The notes under the pieces were generated by a model. The model had not been told where the DNA came from. It made no database searches and saw only the letters and a list, made by a program, of their open reading frames with translations. Both the position numbers and the translations under genes were made by a program. A stretch of DNA of 64,000 nt from Methylocaldum sp. (lineage in GTDB: Bacteria; Pseudomonadota; Gammaproteobacteria; Methylococcales; Methylococcaceae), in assembly GCF_035627495.1 (NCBI RefSeq), contig NZ_DASPLO010000012.1:591-64590 (forward strand). The letters are read 5' to 3'. This document shows, one piece after another, positions 4,670 through 38,400 of the stretch; position 1 is the first letter of the stretch, and the number at the start of each line of letters is the position of its first letter.

Positions 4670-5577
4670 TGCTGGAGCTGTCGCTGCGAAAACACCTGCA
4701 CACGGCGGAAGGGAACGTGACGCTGAATCTCGAGTTCGAAGTCGAGACAGGACAGTTTCTGACCTTATTCGGGCGATCAGGCGTGGGAAAAACCACCTGC
4801 TTGCGCTGCATCGCCGGGCTGACGGAGCCCGATCACGGAAGAATCGTCGTAGGCGGCGAGGTGTGGTTCGACCGGAACCGACGCATCAACGTCCCGCCCC
4901 AGAAACGCGGAGTCGGTTTTGTGTTCCAGGATTATGCCCTCTTTCCCAATCTGAGCGTGCGCGAGAACCTCCACATCGCGTTGGCGGACCCTAAAGACGA
5001 GCACTATGTGGATGAACTCTTGAACCTAATGGGCATCAAGGAGCTGGAACGGCGTCTTCCGGCCACCCTGTCCGGGGGACAACAGCAGCGGGTAGCGCTG
5101 GCGCGGGCTTTGGCCCGTAGACCTCGGCTATTGCTGCTCGACGAGCCGCTTTCCGCCTTGGACGGTGAAACCCGGCTCCGTCTTCAGAATGAAATCCTGG
5201 GAATACACCGCCATTTGCACATGACCACGCTGATGGTCAGCCATGATCTCGGCGAAGTCTACAGGCTGTCCAATCAGGTCATCGTCATCGAGGGCGGCCA
5301 AGCGGTTGTCCGCGGCCGACCCGCCGAGGTTTTCAGCAATCGCCGGATCAGCGGGAAATTTCAGTTTACCGGCGAAGTGCTCGCGATCGATCGCAACGAC
5401 GTCGTATTCACTCTCTCGATCCTGATCGGTAACCGGGTGGTGCAAGTGATCGCCACTGCGCAAGAAATGCAGGATATCCAAGTCGGCGACACGGTAATGC
5501 TGGTTTCCAAGGCATTCAATCCGATCGTGATGAAAGTGGATCGGAATCCCGGCCGTACCTCGCGACCCAGTTCATGA
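4669..5577 (+). CDS. modC: molybdate ABC transporter ATPase
   Basis: Walker A GRSGVGKT, signature LSGGQQQRVALARAL, Walker B LLLLDEP, and a C-terminal TOBE-like tail. The start overlaps the modB stop. Confidence 0.9.
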   Translation: MLELSLRKHLHTAEGNVTLNLEFEVETGQFLTLFGRSGVGKTTCLRCIAGLTEPDHGRIVVGGEVWFDRNRRINVPPQKRGVGFVFQDYALFPNLSVRENLHIALADPKDEHYVDELLNLMGIKELERRLPATLSGGQQQRVALARALARRPRLLLLDEPLSALDGETRLRLQNEILGIHRHLHMTTLMVSHDLGEVYRLSNQVIVIEGGQAVVRGRPAEVFSNRRISGKFQFTGEVLAIDRNDVVFTLSILIGNRVVQVIATAQEMQDIQVGDTVMLVSKAFNPIVMKVDRNPGRTSRPSS

Positions 5578-6407
5578 AAGGCCATCGATTAATGACGAAT
5601 CCAAGTCCCGAGAAAGTCGATCCGCCCTCCTTGGTAGAGGGCGAATTGCGCCTCGCCGGCGGCCTCAATGAGCGCCTCTTTCGGCTGCTCGCGGCAATCG
5701 AGAAGACCGGTTCGATCAACCGGGCGGCCAAAGATGTCGGCTTGAGCTATAAAGGCGCTTGGGAAATGGTGGAGCGGGCCAACAACCTTTCTCCCCGAAT
5801 TCTGGTTTCCACCGCAGTCGGCGGCCGGCACGGAGGCGGCACGAAGCTCACTGGCGGCGGCCGGGAATTATTGGAACTCTTTACCAGACTACAGGAAGAG
5901 CACCGCCGCTTCCTGGATTCGAAAAATCGGCAATTGGCGGACAACCCGAATCTCGTTTTCTTATTCAGGAGATTAAACGTGAAAGCAAGCGCGCGTAACC
6001 AGTTCTTCGGCAAAGTGACCGATATCCGCACCGGCGCGGTCACCGTGGAGGTGTGCATCGGTCTCAAGGGCGGTGACACCATCGTGTCGTCCATCACCAA
6101 GGAATCGGCGGAGTCGCTCGGCATCAGAAACGGTGACGACGTGATAGCCCTGATCAAGGCCCCGCTGGTCATGATCGTCAAGGATTTCGGCGGATACCGC
6201 CTGTCGGCGCGCAATCAGTTGAAAGGCACGGTCAAACGCATTCAAAAAGGCGCGGTGAATTCCGAGATCGTGATCGAACTGGCGGGGGGCGACTCGGTAG
6301 CCGCTACGATAACCAATGAAAGCATGGATTCGATGGGACTCCGCGGAAGCGATACGGCGTACGCCGTGTTCAAGGCGGGGTCGGTCGTTCTCGGGGTTGC
6401 CACCTAG
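5574..6407 (+). CDS. modE: molybdate-responsive transcriptional regulator ModE (HTH + di-Mop)
   Basis: N-terminal HTH (IEKTGSINRAAKDVGLSYKGAWEMVE) and two Mop domains, each opening with SARNQ. ATGA overlap with modC. Confidence 0.9.
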   Translation: MKGHRLMTNPSPEKVDPPSLVEGELRLAGGLNERLFRLLAAIEKTGSINRAAKDVGLSYKGAWEMVERANNLSPRILVSTAVGGRHGGGTKLTGGGRELLELFTRLQEEHRRFLDSKNRQLADNPNLVFLFRRLNVKASARNQFFGKVTDIRTGAVTVEVCIGLKGGDTIVSSITKESAESLGIRNGDDVIALIKAPLVMIVKDFGGYRLSARNQLKGTVKRIQKGAVNSEIVIELAGGDSVAATITNESMDSMGLRGSDTAYAVFKAGSVVLGVAT

Positions 6408-6510
6408 AAGGTGGGCTTTCCGCGGGTATCGGCTTCCCGCTAAAACACAACTCTGAAATATGTAGGACACGATTACGCGGATCAGAGCGGCCCCTGAACC
6501 TTTCAGGCGT

Positions 6511-6545
6511 AAATAACGCTTGCTGTTATTTTATGTTTCTATAAT
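6511..6545 (+). promoter_or_regulatory. ars promoter region: 7-bp inverted repeat plus -10 box
   Basis: AAATAAC-N7-GTTATTT at 6511-6531, followed by TATAAT at 6540-6545. The -10 box is only 9 nt upstream of the arsR ATG, so the mRNA is leaderless or nearly so. Confidence 0.45.
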
Positions 6546-6554
6546 AATTGAACC

Positions 6555-6896
6555 ATGGAAATTAAATTTATAGTCACCGCGCTTGCAGCGCTCGCCCAAG
6601 ATTCCCGCTTGGCTATCTTCCGCTTGTTGGTGCAGGCCGGGCCTGAAGGCCTATCCGCCGGGAAAATCAGCGAGGCGCTGGGCATTCCGCCCTCTTCGCT
6701 CTCCTTCCACATGAAGGAACTCGCCCACGCCGATCTCGTTTCGTCCCGGCAGGAAAGCCGTTACGTCATTTATTCGGCGAATTTCCGGACCATGAACGAG
6801 CTGCTCGGCTTTCTGACCGAAAACTGCTGCGGCGGCAAGCCCTGCAAGCCGACCGCCACATCCGACTGCACCAGCATCGAGGAGACCCAGGCATGA
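6555..6896 (+). CDS. arsR: ArsR/SmtB family metalloregulator
   Basis: Winged HTH (LAQDSRLAIFRLL..., ISEALGIPPSSLSFHMKEL). The C-terminal Cys cluster ENCCGGKPC resembles the C-terminal As(III) site of the Acidithiobacillus-type ArsR. Confidence 0.85.
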   Translation: MEIKFIVTALAALAQDSRLAIFRLLVQAGPEGLSAGKISEALGIPPSSLSFHMKELAHADLVSSRQESRYVIYSANFRTMNELLGFLTENCCGGKPCKPTATSDCTSIEETQA

Positions 6897-7396
6897 GTGA
6901 AAAAACCTTCAATGTCCTTTTCCTGTGTACCGGTAACTCGGCGCGCAGCATCATGGCGGAAGCCTTGCTGAACACCATGGGTTCGGATCATTTCCATGCC
7001 TTCAGCGCGGGCAGTCACCCGACGGGAACGGTCAACCCATTCGCCCTGGAAAGATTGGAAAAAGAGCGAATTCCCACCGAGGGCGCGCGGAGCAAGAGCT
7101 GGAATGAATTCGCTCGACCGGCGGCACCGGTCCTGGATTTCGTCATCACCGTCTGCGACAACGCGGCGGGAGAGGTGTGCCCGGCCTGGCCAGGACAGCC
7201 GATCACGGCCCATTGGGGTGTGCCCGATCCGGCAGCGGTCGCCGGTTCGGATGGCGAGAAACGCCTGGCCTTCAGCAAGGCATTCGCCGTTCTCCATCGG
7301 CGCGTCTCCTTGTTCACGAGTCTCAATCCCGCAAGCTTGGAGCGGCTCGCGCTGGAACAAAAAGTCCGCGAGATCGGGCGCGTAGTCGAGACCTGA
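6893..7396 (+). CDS. arsC: arsenate reductase, LMW-PTP/thioredoxin-coupled type
   Basis: P-loop LCTGNSARS, plus FSAGSHPTG and VITVCD..AGEVCP. Confidence 0.85.
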   Translation: MSEKTFNVLFLCTGNSARSIMAEALLNTMGSDHFHAFSAGSHPTGTVNPFALERLEKERIPTEGARSKSWNEFARPAAPVLDFVITVCDNAAGEVCPAWPGQPITAHWGVPDPAAVAGSDGEKRLAFSKAFAVLHRRVSLFTSLNPASLERLALEQKVREIGRVVET

Positions 7397-8029: not shown

Positions 8030-9814
8030 ATGACGAACACGACGTTCCTCGAACAGCCTCCGCGCTTCCTGTTCTTCACCGGCAAGGGCGGCGTCGGCAA
8101 GACATCGATGGCCTGCGCCACGGCGATTCAACTGGCGGAAAGCGGCAAACGCGTCTTGCTCGTCAGCACCGATCCGGCCTCCAATGTGGGGCAGGTGTTC
8201 GGCGTCACGATCGGCAACCGCATGACGCCGCTGGACGCCGTTCCGGGCCTCTCCGCCCTGGAAATCGACCCGCAGGCGGCGGCGCAGGGCTACCGCGACC
8301 GTATCGTCGGCCCGGTGCGCGGCGTCTTGCCCGACGCCATCGTCAAGGGGATCGAGGAACAGCTCTCCGGCGCTTGCACGACCGAAATCGCCGCCTTCGA
8401 TGAATTCACGGCGCTGCTGACCGATTCCGCTCTGGTGGCGGGCTACGATCACATCGTGTTCGACACGGCGCCGACCGGGCACACCATCCGCTTGCTGCAA
8501 CTGCCGGGAGCCTGGAGCGGCTTTCTGGAAGCGGGCAAGGGTGACGCCTCGTGTCTCGGTCCGCTGGCCGGTCTGGAAAAACAGCGGGCGCAATACAAGG
8601 CGGCGGTGGAAGCCTTGGCCGATTCCAACCGCACCCGGCTGATCCTAGTGGCCCGCGCCCAGCAAGCCACATTGCGGGAAGTGGCGCGCACCCATGAGGA
8701 ACTCGCCGCCATCGGGCTGACGCAGCAGCATCTGGTGATCAACGGCATCCTGCCGCCCGGCGAGGCCGAGGACGATCCGCTCGCCGCCGCCATCGTGCGC
8801 CGCGAACAGGTCACCCTGGCCGAAATTCCCGAGTCGTTGCAGGCACTGCCCCGCGATCAGGTCGCGCTCAAGCCCTTCAATCTCGTCGGGGTAGACGCGC
8901 TTCGCCGCTTGTTGACTCCTGAATCATCGCTATCAACACCCGTCCATGGGGCATCGTGGATACTGAACGCCCCCGACCTGAACAGCCTGGTCGAGCCTAT
9001 AGCCGCCGACGGCCATGGCTTGGTGATGCTCATGGGCAAGGGCGGCGTGGGCAAGACCACTCTGGCCGCGGCCATCGCCGTGGCGCTGGCGCGGCGCGGA
9101 CTGCCAGTGCATCTCACCACCTCGGATCCGGCTGCGCATCTGGCCGAGACGCTGCCCAACGTGCCCGACAACCTGGCGGTGAGCCGCATCGACCCCCAGG
9201 CCGAGACCGAACGCTACCGTGCGCACGTGCTGGAAACCAAGGGCAGCACCCTCGACGCACAAGGCCGCGCCTTACTCGAAGAGGATCTGCGCTCGCCTTG
9301 CACCGAGGAAATCGCCGTTTTCCAGGCTTTCTCGCGCATCATCCGCGAGGCGGGCCGAAAGTTCGTGGTGATGGACACGGCACCCACCGGCCACACCCTG
9401 CTGCTGCTCGACGCGACGGGAGCCTACCACCGCGAGGTCACCCGCCAGATGAATGCCACGAGCCTGCACTACACCACGCCGATGATGCGGCTGCAGGACC
9501 CGGAACAGACCAGGGTAATCATCATCACCCTGGCGGAAACGACGCCGGTGCTGGAAGCGGCCAACCTCCAGGCTGACCTCGAACGCGCCGGCATCGAGCC
9601 TTGGGCCTGGATCGTCAATCAGAGCCTCGCCGCCGCCCAGACCCGCTCGCCGCTGCTGCGACAACGGGCGCTGAACGAACGCGCGCAGATCGAGGAGGTA
9701 GCCGCCGGGCACGCCGTGCGCTACGCGGTGGTCGCGCTTCAGGAAGAGGAGCCAGTCGGCGCCGAACGCTTGCGGGCACTGACCGAAATGCCGGCAGACG
9801 CCGCTGCCACATGA
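8030..9814 (+). CDS. arsA: arsenite-transporting ATPase ArsA (two-halves)
   Basis: Duplicated P-loops GKGGVGKTS and GKGGVGKTT, and the DTAPTGHT motif in both halves. Confidence 0.95.
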   Translation: MTNTTFLEQPPRFLFFTGKGGVGKTSMACATAIQLAESGKRVLLVSTDPASNVGQVFGVTIGNRMTPLDAVPGLSALEIDPQAAAQGYRDRIVGPVRGVLPDAIVKGIEEQLSGACTTEIAAFDEFTALLTDSALVAGYDHIVFDTAPTGHTIRLLQLPGAWSGFLEAGKGDASCLGPLAGLEKQRAQYKAAVEALADSNRTRLILVARAQQATLREVARTHEELAAIGLTQQHLVINGILPPGEAEDDPLAAAIVRREQVTLAEIPESLQALPRDQVALKPFNLVGVDALRRLLTPESSLSTPVHGASWILNAPDLNSLVEPIAADGHGLVMLMGKGGVGKTTLAAAIAVALARRGLPVHLTTSDPAAHLAETLPNVPDNLAVSRIDPQAETERYRAHVLETKGSTLDAQGRALLEEDLRSPCTEEIAVFQAFSRIIREAGRKFVVMDTAPTGHTLLLLDATGAYHREVTRQMNATSLHYTTPMMRLQDPEQTRVIIITLAETTPVLEAANLQADLERAGIEPWAWIVNQSLAAAQTRSPLLRQRALNERAQIEEVAAGHAVRYAVVALQEEEPVGAERLRALTEMPADAAAT

Positions 9815-9859
9815 GTGAAATCAAGAGAGCCGCAAATTTTACTTATCGGAGCATTCGCC

Positions 9860-10303
9860 ATGAAAAGATTCCATGTCCACATCGCCGTCGATGATCTCGA
9901 AAAGAACATCCGTTTCTACAGCGCCTTATTCCAAACCGAGCCCAGCGTCCGGGAAACCGACTATGCCAAGTGGATGCTGGACGATCCGCGCATCAACTTC
10001 GCCATCTCCGCACGGGGAAGCAAATCTGGCCTGGATCATTTGGGGATACAGGTCGAATCCACCGAAGAATTGGAAGCGGTGCAACAAGGGCTGACAACCG
10101 CCGCCTTGCCGGTCGCGGCGCAGAAGCAGGCGGCCTGCTGCTATGCCCAATCCGACAAATACTGGACGGTCGATCCCCAAGGCATCGCCTGGGAGGCCTT
10201 TCACTCGTTGAGCACCATCCCGATGTTCGGCGAAGACACGGCCATACAACTCAAATCCGCTTCGAACTGTTGCAACCCCTCCCAACAAGGAATCCGTACG
10301 TGA
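9860..10303 (+). CDS. arsI: ArsI/CadI-family glyoxalase-fold metalloenzyme (possible C-As lyase)
   Basis: VOC fold ([25 protein letters not shown]) with a vicinal Cys pair (QAACCYA), as in ArsI. Confidence 0.7.
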
Positions 10304-10791
10304 ACCCGCGTCCGCTCGATGTTCTCGTTCTCTGCACCGGCAATTCCTGCCGCAGCATCCTCGGCGAAGCTCTGATCAACCACTTAGGGAAGGGCCGCTT
10401 GCGCGCCTTCAGCGCCGGGAGCCATCCGACCGGCCGGGTCAACCCGAACGCCCTGGCAACGCTGTCGCGTCACGGTCTGCCGACCGAAGGCTATGCCAGC
10501 AAGTCTTGGGATGCGCTCGAAGAGACGCCGATCGATATCCTGATTACGGTCTGCGATTCGGCGGCGGGGGAAACCTGCCCGGTTTACCTGGGATCGGCCG
10601 TTCGGGGTCATTGGGGCTTGCCCGACCCGGCCCACGTCACCGGCAATCCCGAAGTCATCGAGGCCGCTTTCGAGGCGACTTATTCCGCCCTGGAGAAGCG
10701 TATCCGCCAACTGCTGGCGCTGCCGGTGGAAACGATGTCCCGGTCCGAACTGACCGAGGCGCTGAATCGGATCGGCGCGGGAACCCTTTGA
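10300..10791 (+). CDS. arsC: second LMW-PTP type arsenate reductase
   Basis: The GTG start overlaps the arsI stop (GTGA). Motifs [18 protein letters not shown] and [13 protein letters not shown]. Confidence 0.85.
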
Positions 10792-10811
10792 ATAGCTTGA
10801 GAGCTACCGTC

Positions 10812-11951
10812 ATGAACAAAGAAATATCCATCAATTCCGACCGGACTCTTCACCCGCCAGCTTCAGCCCGCGAGTCCCGCAAGCGGCTGGATTTCGTGGC
10901 GCGGTTTCTGACGCTGTGGATTTTTGTGGCCATGGCGGGCGGGGTCGCGCTGGGCTATTTCGTCCCCGGCGTCACCCAATGGCTGACCCGGTTTCAGGTG
11001 GGAACCACTTCCATTCCCATCGCCATCGGCCTCATCCTGATGATGTATCCGCCGCTGGCCAAGGTGCGCTACGAGGAACTGCCCCAGGTCTTCAAGAACC
11101 TCAAGGTCTTGACGCTCTCCCTGATCCAGAACTGGGTGATCGGCCCGATCCTGATGTTCGCGCTGGCCATCCTGTTTCTTCGGGACTACCCGGAATACAT
11201 GGTGGGCCTGATCATCATCGGCCTCGCCCGCTGCATCGCCATGGTCCTGGTCTGGAACGATCTGGCCCGGGGCGATACCGAATATTGCGCGGGGCTGGTG
11301 GCGTTCAACTCCATCTTTCAGATGCTGTTCTTTTCCCTCTACGCCTATGTTTTCGTCACCGTCCTGCCCGACTGGCTGGGAATCGCATCGGGCCTCGAAG
11401 TATCGATCACCATTCTCCAGGTCGCCGAAAGCGTGTTGATCTATCTGGGAATTCCTTTTTTCGGCGGCATGCTCACCCGTTTTTTTCTGGTGCGGCGCAA
11501 AGGCCGGCAGTGGTATGAGGAAAAATTCATCCCCAAGATCAGCCCTCTAACCCTAATCGCCCTCTTGTTCACCATCCTGGTGATGTTCTCGCTCAAGGGC
11601 GAATACATTGTGCAGCTGCCCCTGGATGTGGCGCGCATCGCCATCCCCCTGGTCCTCTATTTCATCATCATGTTCTTGGCCACGTTTTACATGTCGGCCA
11701 AGGCGGGAGCCGGGTATCGCATCAGCACCACCCTGTCGTTCACCGCCGCCAGCAATAATTTCGAATTGGCCATCGCCGTGGCCGTGGCGGTTTTCGGTCT
11801 CCAGTCGGGGCAGGCCTTCGCCGCGGTCATCGGCCCTCTGGTGGAGGTTCCGGTGCTGATCGGCCTGGTCAAGGTGGCCCTTTACTTCAGGCAAAAATAT
11901 TTCACGCCCGGCGACCGAGCCGCCGAACCAATCGCGGAAAGACTCTCATGA
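10812..11951 (+). CDS. acr3: ACR3-family arsenite efflux permease
   Basis: About 10 TM segments with ACR3-like sequences ([44 protein letters not shown]). Confidence 0.9.
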
Positions 11952-12766
11952 ATGACCTGAAAGAAGCAAAAGCCCGAGCCGCCAGAGCCTACAACGCCGC
12001 AGCCGACTATTTCGACCATCCCGTCAGTTCCTTTTGGCACCGCTTCGGAAAACAAACCGTAGAGCGGATCAACCTTCTTCCCGGCGAACGGGTGCTGGAT
12101 GTCTGTTCCGGAAGCGGGGGTTCCGCATTGCCTGCGGCGGAACGGGTAGGCCCGAATGGCAACGTGGTCGCGGCCGATCTTGCGGAAAACCTGATTGCCT
12201 TGGCTCGAGCCAAGGCGAACGCCAGGGGTTTGGAGAACATCGAATTCCGGGTCGGCGACATGCTTGCCCTGGGCTATCCGGATGCCGGTTTCGACGCGGT
12301 GGTCTGCGTCTTCGGCATCTTCTTCGTTCCGGACATGGCTGCAGCGGCCAGGGAGTTATGGCGCATGGTCCGCCCCTGCGGCCGTCTGGCCATCACCACC
12401 TGGGGACCTAAGCTCTTCGAGCCGGCCAACGGCGCTTTCTGGGATCTCATCCGCCAGGAACGGCCCGATCTCCATCGCAGCTTCAATCCCTGGGACCGCA
12501 TTTCCGAACCGTCCGGCTTACGCGAAATGCTTGCGGACGCGGGTGTACACACTGCGAACATCGTCGCGGAACCCGGCACTCATCCCTTGAACGCGCCGGA
12601 CGACTGGTGGGCCATCGCTATGGGCAGCGGCTACCGGGGCACCCTGGAGCAATTGGATGCCGAGACCTTCGCCCGAGTGCGCGAGGGCAATCTGTTCCGC
12701 CTTCACCAGGAGCGGGTAAGCGCCATAGAGACGAACGTCATTTATGCCGTGGCCACGAAAAGCTGA
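11948..12766 (+). CDS. class I SAM-dependent methyltransferase (possibly ArsM-like)
   Basis: Motif [17 protein letters not shown] overlap with acr3. Assignment to ArsM rests on context only. Confidence 0.6.
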
Positions 12767-12771
12767 TTCCG

Positions 12772-13568
12772 ATCCTGATACGCCAGCATAAGGCTGCGGT
12801 GGCCAATGCCTCGCACGCGTTAATCGTGGGTGGGGGATTCATCGGTCTGGAAATGGCCGATCAGGTGTTGCCGCCGCTCGATCCGGAAATGGCCGGTTAC
12901 GCCGCCGAAAGGCTGATAAGCCACGGCGTCAGCCTGGGGCTTCGCGAAGGTGTCGCGGCCTTCGACAAGCGCCCGGAGCGCGGTTTGAACGTGCGACATC
13001 CAAGGGCGAAACGCTCGCTGCCGACCTGGTCATCATGGGAATCGGCGGGCGCCCGGATTCGGAGCTGGCGACCGCCGCCGGATTGGAATTAGGCGCCCTC
13101 GGCGGCATTCGCGTCAATGAGTACACGCGCATCAGCGATGCCGCTATCTGGGCCGTGGGCGACGTGGTCGAAGTCAAAAATCGAGTTACTGGGAAATGGC
13201 AACTGGTCCCGCTGGCCGGGCCCGCCAACCGGCAGGGACGCATCGCGGCTACGGCCATACTTCACCACTTTTCGTGCAGCAACGGCGAGACGCCGCCTCT
13301 GGCTTTCGAGGGCGTTCTCGGAACCGCCGTGTGCGAAGTGTTCGGCCTGACAGTGGCGGTTACAGGCGCCAACGCACAAAATCTTCCTCTCGAAACCTTG
13401 CGCGACCGGCTTCACGAACTGCCCCGCGATCGGGACATCTGGCTAGTCTGCGGTGTCGGACAACGCGCCTATTACGCCTTTCGGGTATTGATGCAGAACG
13501 GCCTTCAGGTCAAAGTGCTTTCCGGCGGCATGCAGACCTATCAGTCCCGGATGCAAGCGAGTGGCTGA
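12772..13568 (+). pseudogene. decayed CoA-disulfide reductase/NADH oxidase-rhodanese gene
   Basis: Starts mid-protein at the NAD-binding LIVGGGFIGLEMA, so the FAD domain is missing. Has an internal gap after LEMAD and a frameshift near 13000 (..GLNV / SKGETLAADLVIMGIGGRPDSELA). WAVGDV is followed directly by a short rhodanese tail (DIWLVCGVGQRAYYAF). Confidence 0.7.
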
Positions 13569-13859
13569 GAAGGGTAAGCACCGTAGGCGGAATAGAGGGA
13601 CGAAACCCGGCGACATTTGACATGAAGGTCTGCTTGATCATAGTTTGGTAAACGATCACGCCCGAACCGATGGCGCAGCCGACGGGTCTCACCAAACAGA
13701 TATCAAGTTGAAATGCCCGCCGGAAAAGGCCGCCATCATCGCGGACAAGCTTTGCCGTTCTTCCCGTTGCTTCTCCAGAATGGGCGGTTCCGGTCAGTCC
13801 GCTTCCGAAGGCTCCGGTTCCCATAACGGTATTCCTGTTATCCGTTCAAAGGAAAAGCG

Positions 13860-14222
13860 ATGAAAGCTGACGTTGGAAAATGGGCCGTCATTGTTCTCTT
13901 GAGCGTTCTCGCCACCGGCTGTTCGAGCATACGTGCGAGAACGGAAACACCCGCGACGGAATGGAAGATTTACCCCGGCGTTCGGCAAGACGTGAAAGAG
14001 ATGGGCGAAATTTTCAGCGGCGAGCGTCCACAACCGGGATGGCTCAACGGGCTAGTGGCATCCATTCTTATCTTCGACCTGCCTTTCTCGTCCGTCTTCG
14101 ATACTTTCGTATTGCCATACGACCTGAATCGCGTCCGTAATCCGGAAGCTTCTCAAGTAGCCCCCGACACATCCAAAGGATCGCCGGACCGGGAATCGCA
14201 GGAAATTGAAGAAGACAGATGA
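13860..14222 (+). CDS. YceK/YidQ-like small lipoprotein
   Basis: Lipobox LATGCSS. The motif IFDLPFSSVFDTFVLPYD is typical of DUF1375-type lipoproteins. Confidence 0.6.
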   Translation: MKADVGKWAVIVLLSVLATGCSSIRARTETPATEWKIYPGVRQDVKEMGEIFSGERPQPGWLNGLVASILIFDLPFSSVFDTFVLPYDLNRVRNPEASQVAPDTSKGSPDRESQEIEEDR

Positions 14223-14512
14223 CTGTCGGCGGCTTTTCGAAAAATAGGGGGCGATTACCGGATTTGGTTGCTGTCTTCGTTCAGCCATACGAACCAGGGT
14301 GGCCAAGGCCTGAGCGCCTCAAAAAGGTCGCGCTTTGGCCGATAGTCGTGCTCGTGTTAGCCCAAAATCGTTTTGGTCAACCTGGAGACCCTTCGTTAAC
14401 CGAGGCGGACAGTCCTGATTTGGCAGGAACTTCAGGCCTGCTTGGTGCTGCGGCCGGCAAAAAACAAAGAAGTGGTCCGAAACGAAAGACCCGCGCTTAT
14501 GCGGCATGCCTA

Positions 14513-15952
14513 CTACAAGTGAGTTGTCAACCAACTCCAGGCTTTGCTCCAATTCCTACTGATGTGTTCAACAAGTAGGCCGTCTTCCATCCACTGGATC
14601 TCCACGGTGATACCAATCAAAAGGGCAAAAACAACTACCAAGACTACGATAGTTGTGCGTGCTTGCGTATTTCGATATGCCGCGACGGCATCTGTGAGAG
14701 GTTTGTCCGCCAGTGTTTGGTAGTCATCGTCATCCAAAAATGCATAGAGTTTGGTGCGCCACGACTTTCTTGATGTCTCGACGATATCCAAAAATCTTCC
14801 GTAAGTGGCAACGGTAATGACGTATGAAGTAACGATATAGATTGCGACAAGAAGATAGATTGCAGCAAAACCAAAAGTACCTTTACCTGCTTTTGTGCCG
14901 TCCATAGCAACGCGAATACCAACCACTCCGATCGCAATTGCCACGTCACGCCATACAGCGCTCGATAAATCTCGCGCTTGTTGAAGGAGTTTCTGGACTT
15001 CGTCGGCAAGCGTTTTCCGAAGATCGGCCAAAGCCTTGAGGGTATCTTTGCTTCCAGAACGCAGATGAGCCTTATAGACGAGACGCGCAGAATCGAGTGC
15101 GCCGACCAGACGCGATTCGAGGCCAACGCAGAAAGAGGCATCTGGGGTCCAGGCACGCGCTAGCTCCGCTGACAGAAACGTATGCCTGACTTCCACATCG
15201 TCCCCTTCCAAATAGACCCAAGTCGCCGCTTCCTGGAGAGCCTGAAACGGCACTTCATCAGCTTGAAAGGTGCCGAGATCAAGCCGCCGTGGCGGTTGCC
15301 CGGAGAGACCCACTTTTGAAATTCCTCCATCTTTATAGAGATCATTTGGCAGAGACTTCGCGATCATCTGGGCGGCAATTTCCTGCCAGATGGTGACAGC
15401 TTCGCAATTATCGGGAGCAGGTCCGGCCAGTATCCAAGGCTCAATTTGAGCGGGGGCCATTAAATCAGGCGATTGGCATCTGACCTGGCGCCTCGGACCG
15501 CTGTCACTTACTCGTCTTTCGTCTTGAAGTTCAAGCGTAGTTGGGGAATTGATCCAAGGCTCGATACTGAACGCCCTTGTATTAAAACCATTCTTGGTAA
15601 AAGCTAGCCTGACAGTCCTAGCCGAGGAAATCGCCAAATCTTTTTGAAGGAAAGAGCGCCAACCTTCGGGAGTGAAAAGATGAGGCGTGGCATCAGATGA
15701 TTGAAATCTGAGACTTAATCGTTGTTTTTCACCTTCTCTGCCGTCTTTCGGCTCTATGGTATCTTGAGCTTCATCTTTGCATTCCAATGTGAGCCAAGAA
15801 CATTGATCGTCGACAACGGCCTGCCAGGCCGATAAAGCGGCACGCGACATCGCCCCGCCGATCCAAAGATGGCCGGGATCCTCGCTGATATTGAAGTCAG
15901 CCGCAGCACGGCTGGCTTCAATTGCCTCGTGAACCTTTTTCAATGTCGACAT
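14513..15952 (-). CDS. hypothetical protein: ~330-aa soluble domain plus 3 C-terminal TM helices
   Basis: Long ORF in an AT-rich islet that overlaps the upstream gene by 35 nt. TM segments: VAIAIGVVGIRVAM, FGFAAIYLLVAIYIVTSYVITVATY, TTIVVLVVVFALLIGITV. I recognise no family. Confidence 0.65.
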   Translation of the reverse strand: MSTLKKVHEAIEASRAAADFNISEDPGHLWIGGAMSRAALSAWQAVVDDQCSWLTLECKDEAQDTIEPKDGREGEKQRLSLRFQSSDATPHLFTPEGWRSFLQKDLAISSARTVRLAFTKNGFNTRAFSIEPWINSPTTLELQDERRVSDSGPRRQVRCQSPDLMAPAQIEPWILAGPAPDNCEAVTIWQEIAAQMIAKSLPNDLYKDGGISKVGLSGQPPRRLDLGTFQADEVPFQALQEAATWVYLEGDDVEVRHTFLSAELARAWTPDASFCVGLESRLVGALDSARLVYKAHLRSGSKDTLKALADLRKTLADEVQKLLQQARDLSSAVWRDVAIAIGVVGIRVAMDGTKAGKGTFGFAAIYLLVAIYIVTSYVITVATYGRFLDIVETSRKSWRTKLYAFLDDDDYQTLADKPLTDAVAAYRNTQARTTIVVLVVVFALLIGITVEIQWMEDGLLVEHISRNWSKAWSWLTTHL

Positions 15953-16971
15953 CGTTTCTCGTAATTTGCGCCGTCACGATCACAATTTCTGTGCGACCAT
16001 CGCCGTGAGGTCTTGTCTCCGGTTCATGTTCTTCATCGAAAATAATGTGAGTGCCTTCTACTGTTTCTAGCCGCCGACGTTTAGGCTTCGGAATGTGCTC
16101 CGGATCAATGTCGAATGTCTCCTCCGCAATTCCCTGTTCCTTCAATTTCCGCTTTAGCGTCTTGCGAACAGGCGCATCCTCAGCAACATGTCCAAAAATA
16201 GCCGTAATCAGTGGCTCTGGATTATCAGGATCAAAACGGTGTCCACCCTGACGCAGAACATCATAGATACGATTGACCCCGCTAGTCCGAATATCGGGAG
16301 GCAGTTCAGTTCGATGTTCTTTGAAGGTCTGCTTAAATGCCTCTACCACCTTACCGCTCATGTCTTCGGGTGAGTTCACACGGCGCGCCTCAAGAAATCC
16401 TTGAAAGTAATCAGAAATATGGGCCGGTTCACTTCTATCACGCACGACGATCTTGCCGCCTTGACCATCCGTAAGACGAACTAGAGCAATTTTTTGCATA
16501 GCCTCGGCCTTTACGCACGAAGCTTTCGCGAAATCGTTCTAGGCGCGGTACTTGAGGCCCATCTGTATCGTTCAATACATAACGAACAACATCTTCATTA
16601 TCGTATTTAATAAGCGCATAGATTGTCTCGCCATCCCCCACGCTCAATTCGAAAACGAAGAATACCCCCATGCTCATCGTGCGAGAAAGGTGTAATCTCT
16701 GGAAATCTCTAGCTAAATTCTGAGTGTGCTCAGTAAAAACACCTTCATTCTTAGCGATTAAGCGCAGGATACGTTCAGCATTTGACAGTGGCTTAAACTC
16801 AAAGAGATTGCCCCGCAAAGCGGATTTCACGCGCTCTAAAAAGAAATCGGTATGCTGCGGAGGAGCAATCTCCTCGAGCAATATCGGTTCTTCGAGAGAC
16901 TTACCAACCACATGGAAGATCATCCGTCTGATCGACAGCGCTTCCTTCTCTTCATCTGTCAATAAACTCAT
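15918..16971 (-). pseudogene. NdpA/YejK-like nucleoid-associated protein, split by a 1-nt frameshift
   Basis: Track ORFs 16438..16971 and 15918..16499 overlap. The N part has MIFHVVGK and IYALIKYD, and FVRKGRGYAK resembles YejK FLKGRVGRKV. The C part has IALVRL and ISDYFQGFLEA. Removing one A from the A6 run (plus-strand T6 at 16490-16495) joins them. Confidence 0.65.
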
Positions 16972-17285
16972 TCGCCCCCCTTGTCAGCCTCGACTACTCC
17001 CAAAACGCCCAGATTCACGGCTATTTTTCTATTGATTAAAAAATAATTATCGACAACACAAATAATATACAACGCTGGGCTCGAGCGGGTATGAGTGAAC
17101 AGCCTTTCTGCTGTTTTTGCTAGTTCCCAAGCGGGAGCTTAGAAATCAGCAAAAGCCGTGGCCTTCGCCGCAGATTCCCGTGCAAGTGGCAAGGCGCGTA
17201 ATTGCTGCCGCCTTCAAAGCAGGCGCTCCTCGAAAGCGGGTGCGTAGCGCCTGCTGAAATGTTTATTTGAGCGGAAAGGAAACGT

Positions 17286-19502
17286 ATGAAAGCTGTCAGG
17301 TGCATCCTGCTTGTTTTGTTGGCGGCCATGGCTCCCGCGGTGTTGGCGGAACCCGGGAAGCGCGAATGCCGGTTCCCGGAGGACCCGTCTTATCCGGGGA
17401 ACATTTTCGAGCCGCCGGCATGGCCTGTGACGGACCTCGAAACGTACGCGCGAGGTCGGCTAGGCGTGATCAAGCCGACCTACGATCATTTTTACCTGTT
17501 CATCGCCTATCGAAGCTTGGCTGGCTTGCCGATCACGCAGAACGACATAGAACGGCTCCGTCCCCACGATCCCTGCTGGTACACGGATGCACGCGCATTC
17601 TTCCACTATGAACCGACTGCCGAGGATAAATTCCAGTCTGCCTTGAGCAGCTGGCTGGATGTGCGGGCAAAGGTCGGCGCGCTTCCCGAAGTTCCGACGA
17701 TCGAAGCCCGTGCGTCTCACCCTGAATACAGCTTCGTGGAATTTCTGAATTGTCACGCGGATGCGTTCAGAAACGCGGCCACGGTATTGAACAGCCTCTT
17801 GTCGACCTATGGGCAAAGCCCGGAAGTGCTCGACTGGGTTAAAGCTCAGGATCAGGTATTCGCCAATTGTGCGGCGCCGTCCGGTCAGCCTGCCGATGCG
17901 CCCGCGTCCGCGCCGAAATGGTTACGGCTGGATCGGGACTATCAAAAGGCCGCCGCTTATTTTTATGCCGGACGATATGACGAGGCGGTCAAGCAATTCG
18001 ACGCCATTGCCATGACCGCCGATTCGCCATGGCGCGAAATTGCTCCCTATCTGGCGGCTCGTGCCGTTATCCGGTCGACCACCACTCAACAGCCGCCACA
18101 AGGCGGCTCCCTAGATCCCCAGAAGCTGGCCGAGGCCGAATCCCGCCTGAAAGCACTCCTGGACAAACCCGTCGGAGATGAACTGCGCAAGGACGTTGGG
18201 CGATTGCTGCAGTTCGTACAGCTTCGAACGCGACCGGACGAAGTTTTGCGTCGTCTCGACAGCGAACTGACGGCAAGCGAACTGCCGGATTTGATCGGGC
18301 AGGATGTGACCGACTATTGGATGGCCTACACCAAAGGGGAAGGCGAGGAATCGCCGTTGCCGTTCGCGTCGTGGTTGTCGGCCATGCGTCGTGGCAGTGA
18401 CGCGGCCGGAGCTATCGAGCGGTGGCGGGAGAATCGTCAGTTACCTTGGTTGGTTGCCGCACTTCAATCGGCCGGGCCGGACACTCCCGGACTCGATGGA
18501 ATCCTGGCCGATGCGGAAAAAATCCCTCCAGGCTCGGCTGCCTATTTGACGGTGCGGTATCACTTGGCGCGGCTGACCGGCGATCACGCGACAGCCATCG
18601 GTATTATCGACGATGTACTCAAGCTGCCGAACGGATCGGTCGGCATTCAGGATTCCAACGCGTTTAGGCGCATAGGGCTCGCACGGGCCGCAACGATCGC
18701 CGAGTTCGCCCGCTTCGCCCCTCGCACCAGTGCCATGTCGATATATGGGATTCCTCCCACGATCGACAGCGACTCGGTACGCATCTTCAACGAGGGGCTT
18801 CCGCTCGATGAACTGGCGCAAATCGCAGCCATGAAGAAACTGCCGGACAAGTTTCGCCACGAGCTGACGCTAGTGGTCTGGACGCGCGCATTCGTTCTCG
18901 AACGCTGGGATGTGCTAAGGCGATTCGCGCCCCGAATCAAACGCCTGATCCCCGAATCGGGAAATCTGGTCGACGATATGCTTCGAGGATCGAACGGAAA
19001 CAGGCGCCGGGCCGTCGGTGCCATGCTGGTCGCGCGCTATCCAGGCATGGTCGGCAACATGAGCGACAAAATAACCTATTCGGTAAAGCTGGACGACTTC
19101 GCGCGGGCCAATGTGCGTCGCTCGATGGCCCAGGATGGAGAACGAGAGAACTGGTGGTGCGGCTTTCCCTCCAGTGTTTACTGGGCCGAGATGGGCTACG
19201 AAACGAGTGCGGAAGAACCGCCTCCCAAGTTTCTCTCACGAAAGTCGATCCAGGCGCTCCGGCTGGAACGACAGAAACTGCGCGAAACTCCCAATGCTAC
19301 CGATTACCTCGCCAACCTGGTTACCGCATGGGCGAGAACGGCGCCGCGCGACCCGAGATTGCCGCAGGCCTTGCACATGTTGGTACGGTCATCCCGTGGA
19401 GGGTGCGTCCGCCAATCCAACTCCGGCGCCATGTTCAGGCATCTTCATAAGTATTTCCCGGACAATCCTTGGACCAAGATCACCAAAGTTCACTACCGGT
19501 AG
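17286..19502 (+). CDS. hypothetical secreted protein, 738 aa
   Basis: Signal peptide MKAVRCILLVLLAAMAPAVLAEP. Long uninterrupted ORF at host-like GC. No recognisable motifs. Confidence 0.7.
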   Translation: MKAVRCILLVLLAAMAPAVLAEPGKRECRFPEDPSYPGNIFEPPAWPVTDLETYARGRLGVIKPTYDHFYLFIAYRSLAGLPITQNDIERLRPHDPCWYTDARAFFHYEPTAEDKFQSALSSWLDVRAKVGALPEVPTIEARASHPEYSFVEFLNCHADAFRNAATVLNSLLSTYGQSPEVLDWVKAQDQVFANCAAPSGQPADAPASAPKWLRLDRDYQKAAAYFYAGRYDEAVKQFDAIAMTADSPWREIAPYLAARAVIRSTTTQQPPQGGSLDPQKLAEAESRLKALLDKPVGDELRKDVGRLLQFVQLRTRPDEVLRRLDSELTASELPDLIGQDVTDYWMAYTKGEGEESPLPFASWLSAMRRGSDAAGAIERWRENRQLPWLVAALQSAGPDTPGLDGILADAEKIPPGSAAYLTVRYHLARLTGDHATAIGIIDDVLKLPNGSVGIQDSNAFRRIGLARAATIAEFARFAPRTSAMSIYGIPPTIDSDSVRIFNEGLPLDELAQIAAMKKLPDKFRHELTLVVWTRAFVLERWDVLRRFAPRIKRLIPESGNLVDDMLRGSNGNRRRAVGAMLVARYPGMVGNMSDKITYSVKLDDFARANVRRSMAQDGERENWWCGFPSSVYWAEMGYETSAEEPPPKFLSRKSIQALRLERQKLRETPNATDYLANLVTAWARTAPRDPRLPQALHMLVRSSRGGCVRQSNSGAMFRHLHKYFPDNPWTKITKVHYR

Positions 19503-19773: not shown

Positions 19774-20259
19774 ATGATGAGCACATCCAATATGCTGATG
19801 CTATCCGTCGCTTTGACCGTTTGCTGCCTCGGCGCAGCAGTGGCGGATGAAGGAAAGGACGAGTCTGGAAAGGGAAAGGACAGGTACTACTTAGAGAAGG
19901 ACTGGAAGGATAAGAAACACCGGGATGTTGAGAAGGACTGGAAGGATGATGGGCGTGGCTCTTACTTCCACGAGCATGGCTACACCCGTCTTGATATCCC
20001 TCCTGGACATTATCCTCCGCCGGGCGAGTGCCGCATCTGGTATCCGGATCGACCCGCCGGACACCAGCCCCCTCCCGGCAAGTGCTATCGGTTGCGCACC
20101 AAGGTTCCGCCGGGTGCCTGGCTCATCCGTCATCCGGAAGATAATGCCGAGCATGTCCATGTGATTGTCTATGACGACTATCGCCGCGGTGCCATCCGGG
20201 TAATCGGAGAGTTCGATATCGGTACGGGCGTATTTGTGGACATTGTCGTGGATAGATGA
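19774..20259 (+). CDS. small secreted protein with duplicated EKDWKD and PPG-x-C motifs
   Basis: Signal peptide, then repeats EKDWKDKKHRDVEKDWKDD and PPPGECRIWYPDRPAGHQPPPGKC. Confidence 0.6.
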   Translation: MMSTSNMLMLSVALTVCCLGAAVADEGKDESGKGKDRYYLEKDWKDKKHRDVEKDWKDDGRGSYFHEHGYTRLDIPPGHYPPPGECRIWYPDRPAGHQPPPGKCYRLRTKVPPGAWLIRHPEDNAEHVHVIVYDDYRRGAIRVIGEFDIGTGVFVDIVVDR

Positions 20260-35413: not shown

Positions 35414-38400
35414 TCAATGTTTCTTAGTCCTTCTCCATTTTCGGCGACAAACGGACGTGGTCGAGGCTTGCTGTGGCGTGCGTTTGTCCAAGTCCAGCAA
35501 TATCTCGCGCGCCTGTGGGACGTTAAACTCCAGCATTCTCTCGAACAATGCAGTGCCCTGTGCCTGGTGGGGAGCACCTAAATCCTGGAGAACCAAGGCA
35601 ATGGTCACAAAGGACTCGCTCATTAAATAACGGGATGAGGCAATATTCCCCATATCCATTCCGGCGAAATCGAGAAGGATATTGCAAACCTTGTATACAC
35701 GTTCGGGTTCTACGTGAACAAGCTCTTCCAAACACTCACCCACGAATTCCGCCGATTGATAGCTAAGAATCGAGGGATAGTCGCAGAGGGTGTCGAGTAG
35801 TTCTCGGCTGGCCCAATCAGGAAGGAAACCTCCGAGACGGAAAATACTGGCAAGAGCCCTGAGGACAGCTTCATCCTGGTCTTCGAGCAGTTGCAAGAGA
35901 TAGCCATGAACAGTGTAGCGGTGCTGAGATTCCCGCCAAAGATGCGCTATCGAGTGAGCGACACCCACACGGACGGCACGTCGCTTTTCGTTCGTTTCAT
36001 CTCCATGGATGAGATCATTCAACCATTCGGCAATCCAGCATTCATCTGGGAACCAGACACGGCGCAGCATAACCAATTCGCCCATGCCTTGAGCGGCTGT
36101 CTCCCCGCCCTCTTTGAGCATCCTGTCTAACCAATGCTGGGCTACGTCCGGTTCGATCCAGTGCTGACAGTGCGCTAACAGATGCGCCCCTTCTAACGTA
36201 TCGAGGATGGACGGATAGGTTAGGAACAGCCCGTTCAGGAATGCTTGCGCACGGCTGCGGTCGGCGAGATGCAGCCACTGAAGATAGTGGAACATGGCGA
36301 TCCAGACGCGGGGAGATTCGGGGCGAAGCAGATGTCTTTGCAAGATGCTCAGCCAGTGATCCGTCCTAGGTGGCTGCGCAAGGAGACAGGCTTTCGACAA
36401 AGCCGCCAATATCGGGTAATTCCCATGCGGCAAGATCCTACCACCCGCAAGGTCCCAAAGCAGGCTGCCCTGCGCTTTTTTGCTTTCGTCATGCGACTCG
36501 CATGCCTCCTCTGAAGATTCGCCAGCGGGAGCAAGCCAAGTCTCCAGAATGCCGAACAGAGGTTCGGGCAAGGGATGATCGGCATCAACGGCCTTCTCCA
36601 CAGCCCTCGCTGCCGGGCGGCGGAAATGTTCACTGGCAAACCCTTTCTCTGCCAACTCCAAGATAAGACTATAGAACGCGTTGCGGTCATAGTTGGTTTT
36701 GGCCAAAGCCTCGAGGACATCACCCACCGGGATTTCGTTGTGTCCAGGCAGCATTTGCCGCACCAGCCGAACCGCACGCTCGGGGTCCCCTTCCGCCAAC
36801 TTTGCCAGCTCTCGCCCCGCCTGAATAGCTCCACCTTCCATCCTCTTTCTCGGATGGTCCCAACCGTATTCGTCCGTCAATTCGGAAAACAGGTTGAGTA
36901 CATCTTTATCTTGTGCGGCCTCCATCTGCTCGGCACTGACTCGGCTGCCGATCTCACGAAAACCTGAAAACCACATATCACGGTCATGGAGGTCAGGAAA
37001 AGCCCGTTCCTCTTCCTCCACATGGCGGCGGCAGATCGCGCTCATCCGTTCCCGTGGCAGGACCTTAAGCAACCGCAGCCTGTACTCCCGTGTCCAGCGT
37101 ATACGATTACGCCGAGTCTTAGCGTCATCATCCGGTACATGGCTGTAGCGGTTCCAACTCCGGAGAAGCTGCTCCAGACGCAGGAACTGCCCTGCGTCAA
37201 GGTGAGGGACCAGAACCTGTATCAGTTCCTTGGTGTTCCGATGAACGTCTGAATGTGAGCCTAGGACCAGTCGCCGTGGGTCCGCGCAAAGGAATTCGAG
37301 CGCAACATCGGGGTGGATTTTTACGATATGGGCCATGCCTTTCGCCAGGAGGCGCTGCACGAGCATGAGGTCGATTCCCTCATTGGCCTTCTGGAAGGCG
37401 AGAAAAGCGTCGGGCTGGCATTCCGCTAATTTTTCTACTGCCTGGACCATGGCGGTTAGGAAAGGCCGTTCGATGCGCGTTTCCCGTTCATCGTCAATGC
37501 CATCGATCAAGCTTAAGCCCTGTCGGTATCCCACTACGAAGAGATGAGCCTCCCGCGCAGTAGTGGTTATTACCTGTACGAACCAGGGCCAGACGGCATC
37601 TAAGAAGGCACCGGCGGCGGCTTCCGCCAGGGCGGGCAGGTCGTGCAACTCATATCCCTCCAGCAATTTACGACAACGTTTGAACTGGTTCGATTCTTGC
37701 CAGAGGTCCTGAAATGGGGTTTCGCTTTCTGCTACTTGAGTCTCCACGTGGGGTTCAGGCGGAAACTCCTTCTCCCACTCCCATCTGAACCAAGTCGCGA
37801 TCAACCGCGGAGCCTGTTCGGGCAGCTGCATGCTGACTACACCGGCCAGATGGTTCACGGCCCAAGCCGCCACATCGGTCCGGGTCAGAATGCGGCAACA
37901 GCGGTCCACTACGTCGGTCTGCCACCCACTGATATGCTCTAACACCCGCCAAGTGAGAACGTCCTTGTCCGCGTGGGGGAGCCAGTGGTCGTCGATCAGA
38001 TGGAGAACGCTGGGCTGATCAAAGTCGAGGGCTTTAATGAGGATGGGCACTACCGGCCATGCCTCCTGTGCTGACCTGACTATGATCATGGGCAGGTGAG
38101 TGGGCGAAAGCCGTGCAAACCAGCCCTGACTGCCGACTACGGCGGCAAGGATGCGGCTCTGATGCCAGGCATCATCGAACCTCTGGAAAAACAAGGCAGC
38201 TTCGGCAGGTTCAGGGTCCTGAAGCTGGCCTAGGAATTCGATCAACAACATGCGCAGGTGGAGGCGCAGTTCGGAATCCCAGAGTCGGCGGATTTCGTCC
38301 CGATAGGCGTGTCGGTCCACCGCTCGCATGTAGCCTAGAGCATGCCAGACTTGGGGACGTATACGTAGACTGTCTTGCCGCGCCAATACGGCTTCCATTA

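Follow-up and report, generated by a model that had tools for sequence, protein, structure and literature searches.

We examined a two-gene element in a 64-kb stretch of Methylocaldum sp. DNA (contig NZ_DASPLO010000012.1; 64,000 nucleotides (nt), hereafter the window), in which a gene for an NdpA/YejK-like nucleoid-associated protein (NAP) is followed, on the minus strand, by an overlapping gene for a 479-amino acid (aa) protein with C-terminal transmembrane (TM) segments. Three minus-strand open reading frames (ORFs) cover the element, at 16438-16971 (177 aa), 15918-16499 (193 aa) and 14513-15952 (479 aa), the first two of which are halves of one gene. Its components are as follows:

16510..16971, minus strand: NdpA/YejK-like (NA37) gene, authentic N-terminal part, encoding approximately residues 1-154 and running from its start codon (ATG, 16971) as far as the frameshift
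16508..16509, minus strand: frameshift, a 1-nt insertion giving GG where homologues have a single G, located by DNA alignment with homologous loci L071, L072 and L001
15918..16507, minus strand: NdpA/YejK-like gene, C-terminal part in the shifted frame, with its stop codon at 15918-15920
15918..15952, minus strand: 35-nt out-of-frame overlap between the two genes (translational coupling), from the ORF coordinates
14513..15952, minus strand: intact gene for the 479-aa partner, a candidate membrane effector (Pag2B-like, see below), from the ORF, the family alignment, an AlphaFold2 (AF2) model and hydropathy

The identity of the upstream gene became evident upon repair of the frameshift. The extra G lies within the sequence cgtaaaGGcc, whereas the three intact homologous loci read cg[ct]aaa-gc. 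Deletion of one G joined the two halves into a 350-aa protein that matched positions 1-317 of the 325-position PF04245 NA37 profile with a score of 39.9 bits (E=4.3e-10), as against a gathering cut-off of 24.6 bits. Unrepaired, the C-terminal fragment scored 23.9 bits (profile positions 146-317), just below this cut-off, and the N-terminal fragment had no match; thus, the repaired protein carries the whole NA37 domain, but the window copy lacks the intact reading frame of ~335-350 aa that goes with membership of this family. The repaired protein was 84% identical to an intact homologue (P0088), homologues bear precomputed PF04245 assignments, and tblastn searches with the repaired protein gave single full-length high-scoring segment pairs in nearly all of the 69 other loci described below. 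A first-pass annotation, made by a model from the sequence letters, had called this gene an NdpA/YejK homologue, and the end-to-end profile match of the repaired protein bears this out. Of the motifs cited in that annotation, MIFHVVGK, IYALIKYD and ISDYFQGFLEA are indeed present, but FVRKGRGYAK is a frameshift artefact, half of it out-of-frame residues, and its likeness to YejK is spurious; the family sequence at this position is FVRKxEAMQKIALV. The repaired NAP had no NCBIfam equivalog or PADLOC match, and its sole match in PHROGs was to a family of unknown function, phrog_1974 (E=2.7e-5). In the PDB, no relative was found by phmmer, nor was there a fold match at E<=0.001 (best E=0.45).

The Logan assembly of SRR7003767 (contig L070) was 100% identical to the window over positions 13854-17435 (3582 nt), including the extra G. 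Given that the same base is present in an independent assembly, the frameshift is reproducible and probably real. The break falls after approximately residue 154, between beta-strands of the N-terminal domain, as judged from the AF2 model of a 77%-identical homologue (predicted local distance difference test score (pLDDT) 88). Programmed frameshifting was rejected as an explanation, as all homologues keep one frame. A second case of decay was seen in a Pseudescherichia metagenome-assembled genome (MAG), in which both genes of the pair appear to have broken down into short ORFs (locus L019, 8965-11429).

The 479-aa partner had no match in Pfam, NCBIfam, PADLOC or PHROGs, no relative by sequence in the PDB and, at E<=0.001, no similar fold in the PDB or BFVD; its best PDB fold match (E=0.033, TM-score 0.17), to F-BAR-like long helices, was of no use. 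It belongs, nevertheless, to a large family. A word-indexed search identified 87 homologues of ~450-490 aa, against which the window copy is full length, and a full hidden Markov model (HMM) scan of 1.84 billion representatives identified 626 clusters at 50% identity with E<=1e-3, 376 of these with E<=1e-30. A profile search with a wider alignment added no new relatives among the best 8000 candidates. The organism-named members are all from Pseudomonadota and include Methylomonas, Methylobacterium, Bosea, Bradyrhizobium, Rhizobium, Sphingomonas, Pseudomonas, Dickeya, Sodalis, Klebsiella and Citrobacter, as well as E. coli.

An AF2 model of the protein, built on a 72-sequence alignment, was confident (pLDDT 90.7, predicted TM-score 0.76) and comprises an alpha/beta region (residues 1-270), two very long helices (274-353) and three further long helices. 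The first-pass annotation had given the protein 479 aa and three C-terminal TM helices. Its size and ORF stand; the hydropathy profile contains two strong TM segments (~360-383 and ~430-455) and a weaker one (~336-350), and a count of three is self-consistent. With three TM helices, the N-terminal region and a lysine/arginine-rich loop (384-427) would both be cytoplasmic. Residues 1-270 are acidic (net charge -11, isoelectric point (pI) 4.9), in keeping with the family as a whole (median net charge -11, pI ~5). The most conserved parts of the family alignment are a juxtamembrane helix (LDSARLLYKAHLRSGSKDTLKALADLRKTLADEVQKLLQQ, within 274-353) and the cytoplasmic loop SRxSWRTKLYAFLDDDDY; these motifs (LDSARLLYKAHLRSGSKDTLKALADLRKTL for the helix and SWRTKLYAFLDDDDY for the loop) offer targets for mutagenesis.

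To place the pair in a wider context, one genome per GTDB species was scanned, which yielded 69 loci encoding a relative of the partner. An NdpA-like gene was present immediately upstream, on the same strand, in all 69 of these loci, which came from Alpha-, Beta- and Gammaproteobacteria and extended down to ~26% identity. The same pairing was found in 9/9 IMG/VR viral contigs, at loci fetched by exact protein look-up, in Thiobacimonas phage vB_ThpS-P1 and at the only plasmid-borne locus inspected, from Pantoea. In the window, the start of the partner gene (15952) precedes the stop of the NdpA gene (15918-15920), as first annotated, and the partner start likewise lay upstream of the NdpA stop in 68/69 loci, with overlaps of ~8-41 nt and a constant relative frame. 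Across loci, the bit scores of the two proteins to the window copies were correlated (r=0.98). Conversely, no third gene was conserved, with no other family common to more than 8 of 70 neighbourhoods. Given the invariant pairing, the kept overlap, the co-varying scores and the lack of a conserved third gene, the element is a self-contained two-gene cassette. The GC content of the pair was below that of its flanks in 51/68 loci (median -1.9 points; p=6e-6), and the cassette was found on 10 plasmids, five of which are predicted to be conjugative. In one alphaproteobacterial MAG (locus L034, 8717-11125), the NdpA-like gene and its partner form one in-frame ORF of 802 aa, which may be a natural fusion, as would support a physical interaction, or an artefact of a 1-nt indel in the overlap; we gave it little weight.

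The surroundings of the cassette vary between carriers. In E. coli PapM-32-1, it sits in an island with tRNA-Leu and an integrase, beside genes for a retron-type HNH endonuclease and an N6-methylase, and in E. coli Ecol_316 it lies between hok and the Q antiterminator gene of a lambdoid prophage. In vB_ThpS-P1, a cultured temperate phage, the pair is at the genome end, close to a Cro/CI family regulator gene. Other loci carry a resolvase, ParE and ParA (L071), TniQ/TniB (L072), CcdAB, an IS3 insertion element and TacAT (L073), or a NERD-helicase giant protein, an integrase and a WYL regulator (L074). The ORFs directly adjacent to the 69 pairs, 135 in all, included phage integrase (7), Septu PtuA (4) and PtuB (3), a NERD+UvrD candidate (4), DRT (3), SoFic (3) and PDC-S24 (3), with two each of Gabija GajB, AbiJ, Abi_C, Mrr and RES. 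The family is therefore linked to defence systems and mobile elements. The first-pass suggestion of a functional pair that moves horizontally is upheld by the pairing in every genome and viral contig surveyed, the kept overlap, the score correlation and these variable flanks, rich in mobile and defence genes. At L072, a JGI metagenome contig, a PfkB + nucleoside 2-deoxyribosyltransferase gene and then QueC are located upstream of the pair (4792-7264), near TniQ/TniB; these upstream genes may constitute a DNA-modification module of the 7-deazaguanine type.

A class of bicistronic operons combining a YejK-like NAP with an effector, named PANGU, has been described in a recent preprint (Li et al., April 2026, bioRxiv 10.64898/2026.04.06.716658). 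Type II PANGU consists of the NAP Pag2A and of Pag2B, which has an acidic N-terminal 'DNA-mimicking' DMK domain and a C-terminal TM region (bioRxiv 10.64898/2026.04.06.716658). An E. coli type II operon ('upec') lowered T4 plaques by 3-4 logs, with both genes required; neither gene was toxic alone, and the phenotype was that of abortive infection (bioRxiv 10.64898/2026.04.06.716658). Upon infection, Pag2A-GFP leaves the nucleoid, and Pag2A binds the isolated DMK domain with a dissociation constant (KD) of 19 nM (bioRxiv 10.64898/2026.04.06.716658). In type I PANGU, T4 escapers map to EndoII, supporting host-DNA degradation as the trigger (bioRxiv 10.64898/2026.04.06.716658). The same preprint also lists a Cluster 3, composed of a NAP and a downstream conserved hypothetical protein (bioRxiv 10.64898/2026.04.06.716658).

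The cassette described here resembles type II PANGU in several respects. It is a two-gene operon in which a YejK/NA37 NAP gene comes first and a TM partner second; the partner combines an acidic N-terminal cytoplasmic region with a C-terminal TM part, as judged on charge and hydropathy, the DNA mimicry of its surface being putative; and the family has members in E. coli and is linked to defence genes and mobile elements. It differs in that the NAP gene of the window copy is frameshifted. Architecture, composition, context and occurrence in E. coli all fit type II PANGU. We consider it probable that the islet represents a PANGU-type anti-phage cassette of two genes that arrived by horizontal transfer, with the NAP as putative infection sensor and the translationally coupled membrane protein as putative effector. 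Under this model, which is transferred by inference from the type II PANGU experiments, the NAP would reside on the chromosome of the uninfected cell and would be freed once host DNA is broken down or remodelled by a phage. The free NAP would then bind the acidic, DNA-like N-terminal domain of its membrane partner, and binding would activate the C-terminal helical/TM module such that membrane integrity or energetics are damaged. The infected cell would stop growing and phage spread would be blocked, i.e., abortive infection. The first-pass annotation had proposed, as the first of its options, a DNA-binding sensor with a membrane effector, an idea that gains good support from the same model having been demonstrated experimentally for type II PANGU (bioRxiv 10.64898/2026.04.06.716658). 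Its further statement that no described system has this pairing no longer holds, in view of the NAP + TM operons of that preprint (bioRxiv 10.64898/2026.04.06.716658) and of a second system, DS-17 (PMC13092281).

DS-17, or 'D390', is a NAP-containing pair (WP_000355468.1, the NAP, and WP_000150292.1) whose anti-phage activity was validated by DefensePredictor (Science 2026, PMC13092281). It, too, has a first gene for a protein with an NA37 domain and a second for a ~400-aa protein whose N-terminal region is acidic (net charge -9) and whose hydrophobic helices are C-terminal, and it occupies the same prophage hotspot beside the Q antiterminator. However, the DS-17 NAP has an extra N-terminal zinc ribbon, and the DS-17 genes abut, in contrast to the ~35-nt overlap seen here. 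Membership of the DS-17 family was rejected on the basis of hhalign comparisons of the 479-aa family with WP_000150292.1 (probability 0.09% with the single sequence, 0.58% profile-profile). The two non-homologous NAP + TM-protein cassettes, of the 479-aa family and of the DS-17 type, were observed at the same prophage site (L079, 7954-10417; L082, 1823-4224), i.e., beside the Q antiterminator gene of lambdoid prophages in E. coli and Klebsiella, which looks like a defence hotspot with allelic exchange. Among the novel defence genes predicted by DefensePredictor is also WP_001586997.1, with log-odds of 8.4 (PMC13092281). In Ecol_316, this NAP is encoded beside a partner (WP_001586996.1) that shares 34% identity with the window 479-aa protein from end to end (E=8e-108). 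In some 30 further complete E. coli genomes, the match to Ecol_316 was confined to the NAP gene at the level of the search.

Several points weigh against the sensor-effector reading or against its attribution to type II. To our knowledge, no member of the exact 479-aa family has been assayed to date. The likeness of Pag2A/Pag2B to the window pair is drawn from their published description, and DS-17, a second, non-homologous E. coli family of NAP + acidic-domain + TM pairs, fits the type II description too, so that the assayed 'type II' could be the DS-17 family or another cluster. Moreover, Cluster 2 of the preprint is inter-phylum, whereas the named members of the 479-aa family are all Pseudomonadota. 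How Pag2B is activated and acts is itself stated to be unknown (bioRxiv 10.64898/2026.04.06.716658). Within the window, the islet borders showed neither an integrase nor a defence gene nor a repeat, and the frameshift of the window copy means that no function can be claimed for it in this genome. On balance, the 479-aa family probably corresponds to Cluster 2, i.e., type II PANGU, with another PANGU-like cluster such as Cluster 3 a possible but distinctly less probable placement; under either assignment, the sensor-effector mechanism is the best-supported reading.

A related proposal, which we put forward only tentatively, is that the 479-aa family is distinct from the assayed Pag2B and represents a separate effector family recruited independently by NA37 sensors. 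Were this so, it would, together with DS-17, represent convergent effectors of the 'acidic decoy domain + TM module' type exchanging at the same prophage hotspot, and the natural sensor-dead, effector-intact allele of the window would provide in-genome evidence that such effectors are silent without their NAP.

The first description of NAP-sensor defences dates from as recently as 2026, and the way in which the membrane-type effector is switched on is explicitly an open matter there. To this, the present analysis adds a large, uniform and unannotated effector family with a confident AF2 model, an invariant coupling to NA37 and a map of its mobile carriers. The NAP-sensor concept is already known; what is new is a further member, possibly a variant, of a just-described defence class, likely pseudogenised here. 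For annotation, where a 'hypothetical protein' adjoins an accessory 'nucleoid-associated protein', the two can now be regarded as a candidate pair for defence; the accessory NA37 clade should not be mistaken for housekeeping yejK. E. coli YejK/NdpA shares the same Pfam family, PF04245, over its full length; the NAP described here differs in belonging to a divergent accessory clade, with a score of only 39.9 bits, that is always coupled to a membrane partner and carried on mobile DNA.

Other explanations of the pair were weighed against the PANGU-type cassette. Element-borne NAPs are known, an example being Pnd of plasmid pCAR1, and the pair could serve mobile-element housekeeping, with the membrane partner tethering or sequestering the NAP in order to organise, silence or partition the incoming DNA or to exclude competing elements. 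Consistent with this, the pair occurs on plasmids (half of them predicted to be conjugative), in contexts like those of integrative and conjugative elements and in prophages, and NdpA-type NAPs on mobile elements are documented (PMC6606824; PMC10561277). We nevertheless judge this explanation unlikely, as the cassette moves alone among unrelated types of element and sites on chromosomes and is not accompanied by any conserved gene for replication, partition or transfer, defence genes are enriched directly beside it, prophage copies occupy moron positions (adjoining the Q antiterminator or near the gene for the Cro/CI regulator), and pairs of the same architecture have been shown to defend against phage (bioRxiv 10.64898/2026.04.06.716658).

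With regard to the window copy itself, PANGU needs both genes, and the NAP gene is broken between strands of its N-terminal domain, which makes it probable that the cassette has lost its activity here. Given the single lesion and the untouched effector gene, this inactivation looks recent. The contrary position, that the cassette still functions here, would require the extra G to be an assembly or consensus error, or the NdpA fragments to be made separately and to reassemble. Neither fragment contains any other stop, the second fragment starts at a conserved Met with GAGG just upstream, and the nearby fragmented gene at 12607-13568 could hint at indel-prone sequence. These observations are outweighed by the identical base in the independent Logan assembly, by GG not being a long homopolymer, by the position of the break between strands of the modelled N-terminal beta-sheet, which makes the halves unlikely to fold, and by a GAGG-ATG spacing of only 2 nt, so that continued function is decidedly unlikely.

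Finally, a toxin-antitoxin (TA) or addiction module, with the membrane protein as toxin and the NAP as antitoxin, would suit a compact overlapping operon on mobile DNA, often near TA systems (CcdAB, TacAT, ParE, hok), and a membrane-inserted partner, but is very improbable, because the antitoxin of a type II TA system is indispensable beside an intact toxin gene whereas here a frameshift breaks the gene of the putative antitoxin, that of the putative toxin is intact and the genome was evidently viable (an indirect argument), because the analogous PANGU pairs are non-toxic singly and their NAP activates rather than inhibits (bioRxiv 10.64898/2026.04.06.716658), and because the gene order and sizes (350 aa first, 479 aa second) are atypical of type II TA systems. 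An intact effector beside a dead NAP gene is consistent with activator logic and speaks against antitoxin logic, in agreement with the reported non-toxicity of pagB alone.

The pair also bears a conceptual likeness to Kiwa, a phage defence system composed of the membrane protein KwaA and the DNA-binding protein KwaB. Membership of Kiwa was rejected, given that there were 0 PADLOC matches to KwaA/KwaB and no Pfam DUF4868 match at E<=1. No PDB fold match at E<=0.001 bridged the two systems (the partner reached E=0.033 at best and the NAP E=0.45), and the gene order and sizes of Kiwa are unlike those of the window pair.

The islet stands out from its surroundings in composition. Over the 2.46 kb of the two genes, the GC content is 49.3%, the lowest of any such stretch of the window (mean 58.2%), and in 300-nt windows it is 45-52% across 14.3-17.2 kb, as against ~59-62% on both sides. 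The AT-rich islet noted earlier is thus genuine, but the ~30% GC cited there for individual 60-nt lines is reached in one extreme line (16561-16620), and the contrast is more modest than first described. Two further features adjoin the genes:

16972..17120, minus strand: AT-rich intergenic stretch upstream of the pair, which contains a G-rich ribosome-binding site (ggggggcgaATG) and is presumed from its sequence to be the operon promoter region
14474..14491, minus strand: terminator-like hairpin with a T-rich tail, 22 nt past the partner stop codon; a single weak match, not above shuffled expectation

A consensus promoter scan of 16972..17120 revealed nothing exceeding chance. No credible direct or inverted repeats were found flanking the islet; a 21-nt 'repeat' at 13849 and 17275 was discarded, being merely two gene starts that share a ribosome-binding site and ATGAAAGCTG. 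No tRNA genes were found in the 64-kb window.

The flanks of the islet are ordinary chromosomal genes, encoding a molybdate transporter, arsA, an ACR3-type transporter, a methyltransferase, a broken oxidoreductase, a DUF1375 lipoprotein, a 738-aa secreted protein and signalling proteins, and the linkage to defence or mobile elements seen for PANGU is absent from them. Just upstream (8030-12766, plus strand) is a cluster of the arsenic-resistance type, comprising an ArsA ATPase (594 aa), an SBF/ACR3-type transporter and a UbiE/ArsM-like methyltransferase. At 12607-13568 (plus strand), a pyridine-nucleotide-disulphide oxidoreductase + rhodanese gene is split into two or more ORF fragments that overlap, matching Pyr_redox_2 positions 142-214 and 234-286 and then Rhodanese; this is a second apparent pseudogene, less than 4 kb from the frameshifted NdpA gene. 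The 738-aa protein (17286-19502, plus strand), which has a signal-peptide-like N-terminus, and a 161-aa protein (19774-20259, plus strand) directly flank the islet, and neither has a Pfam match. The Logan contig L070, only 3582 nt long, ends at most a few hundred bases from either edge of the low-GC islet, which may reflect branching of the assembly graph, i.e., strain variation at this site. Lastly, ~18 kb from the islet (35414-39721, minus strand) lies a gene for a 1435-aa protein that carries DUF4062 at its N-terminus and also has an AAA ATPase region, an architecture that we take to resemble that of STAND/Avs-like defence NTPases.

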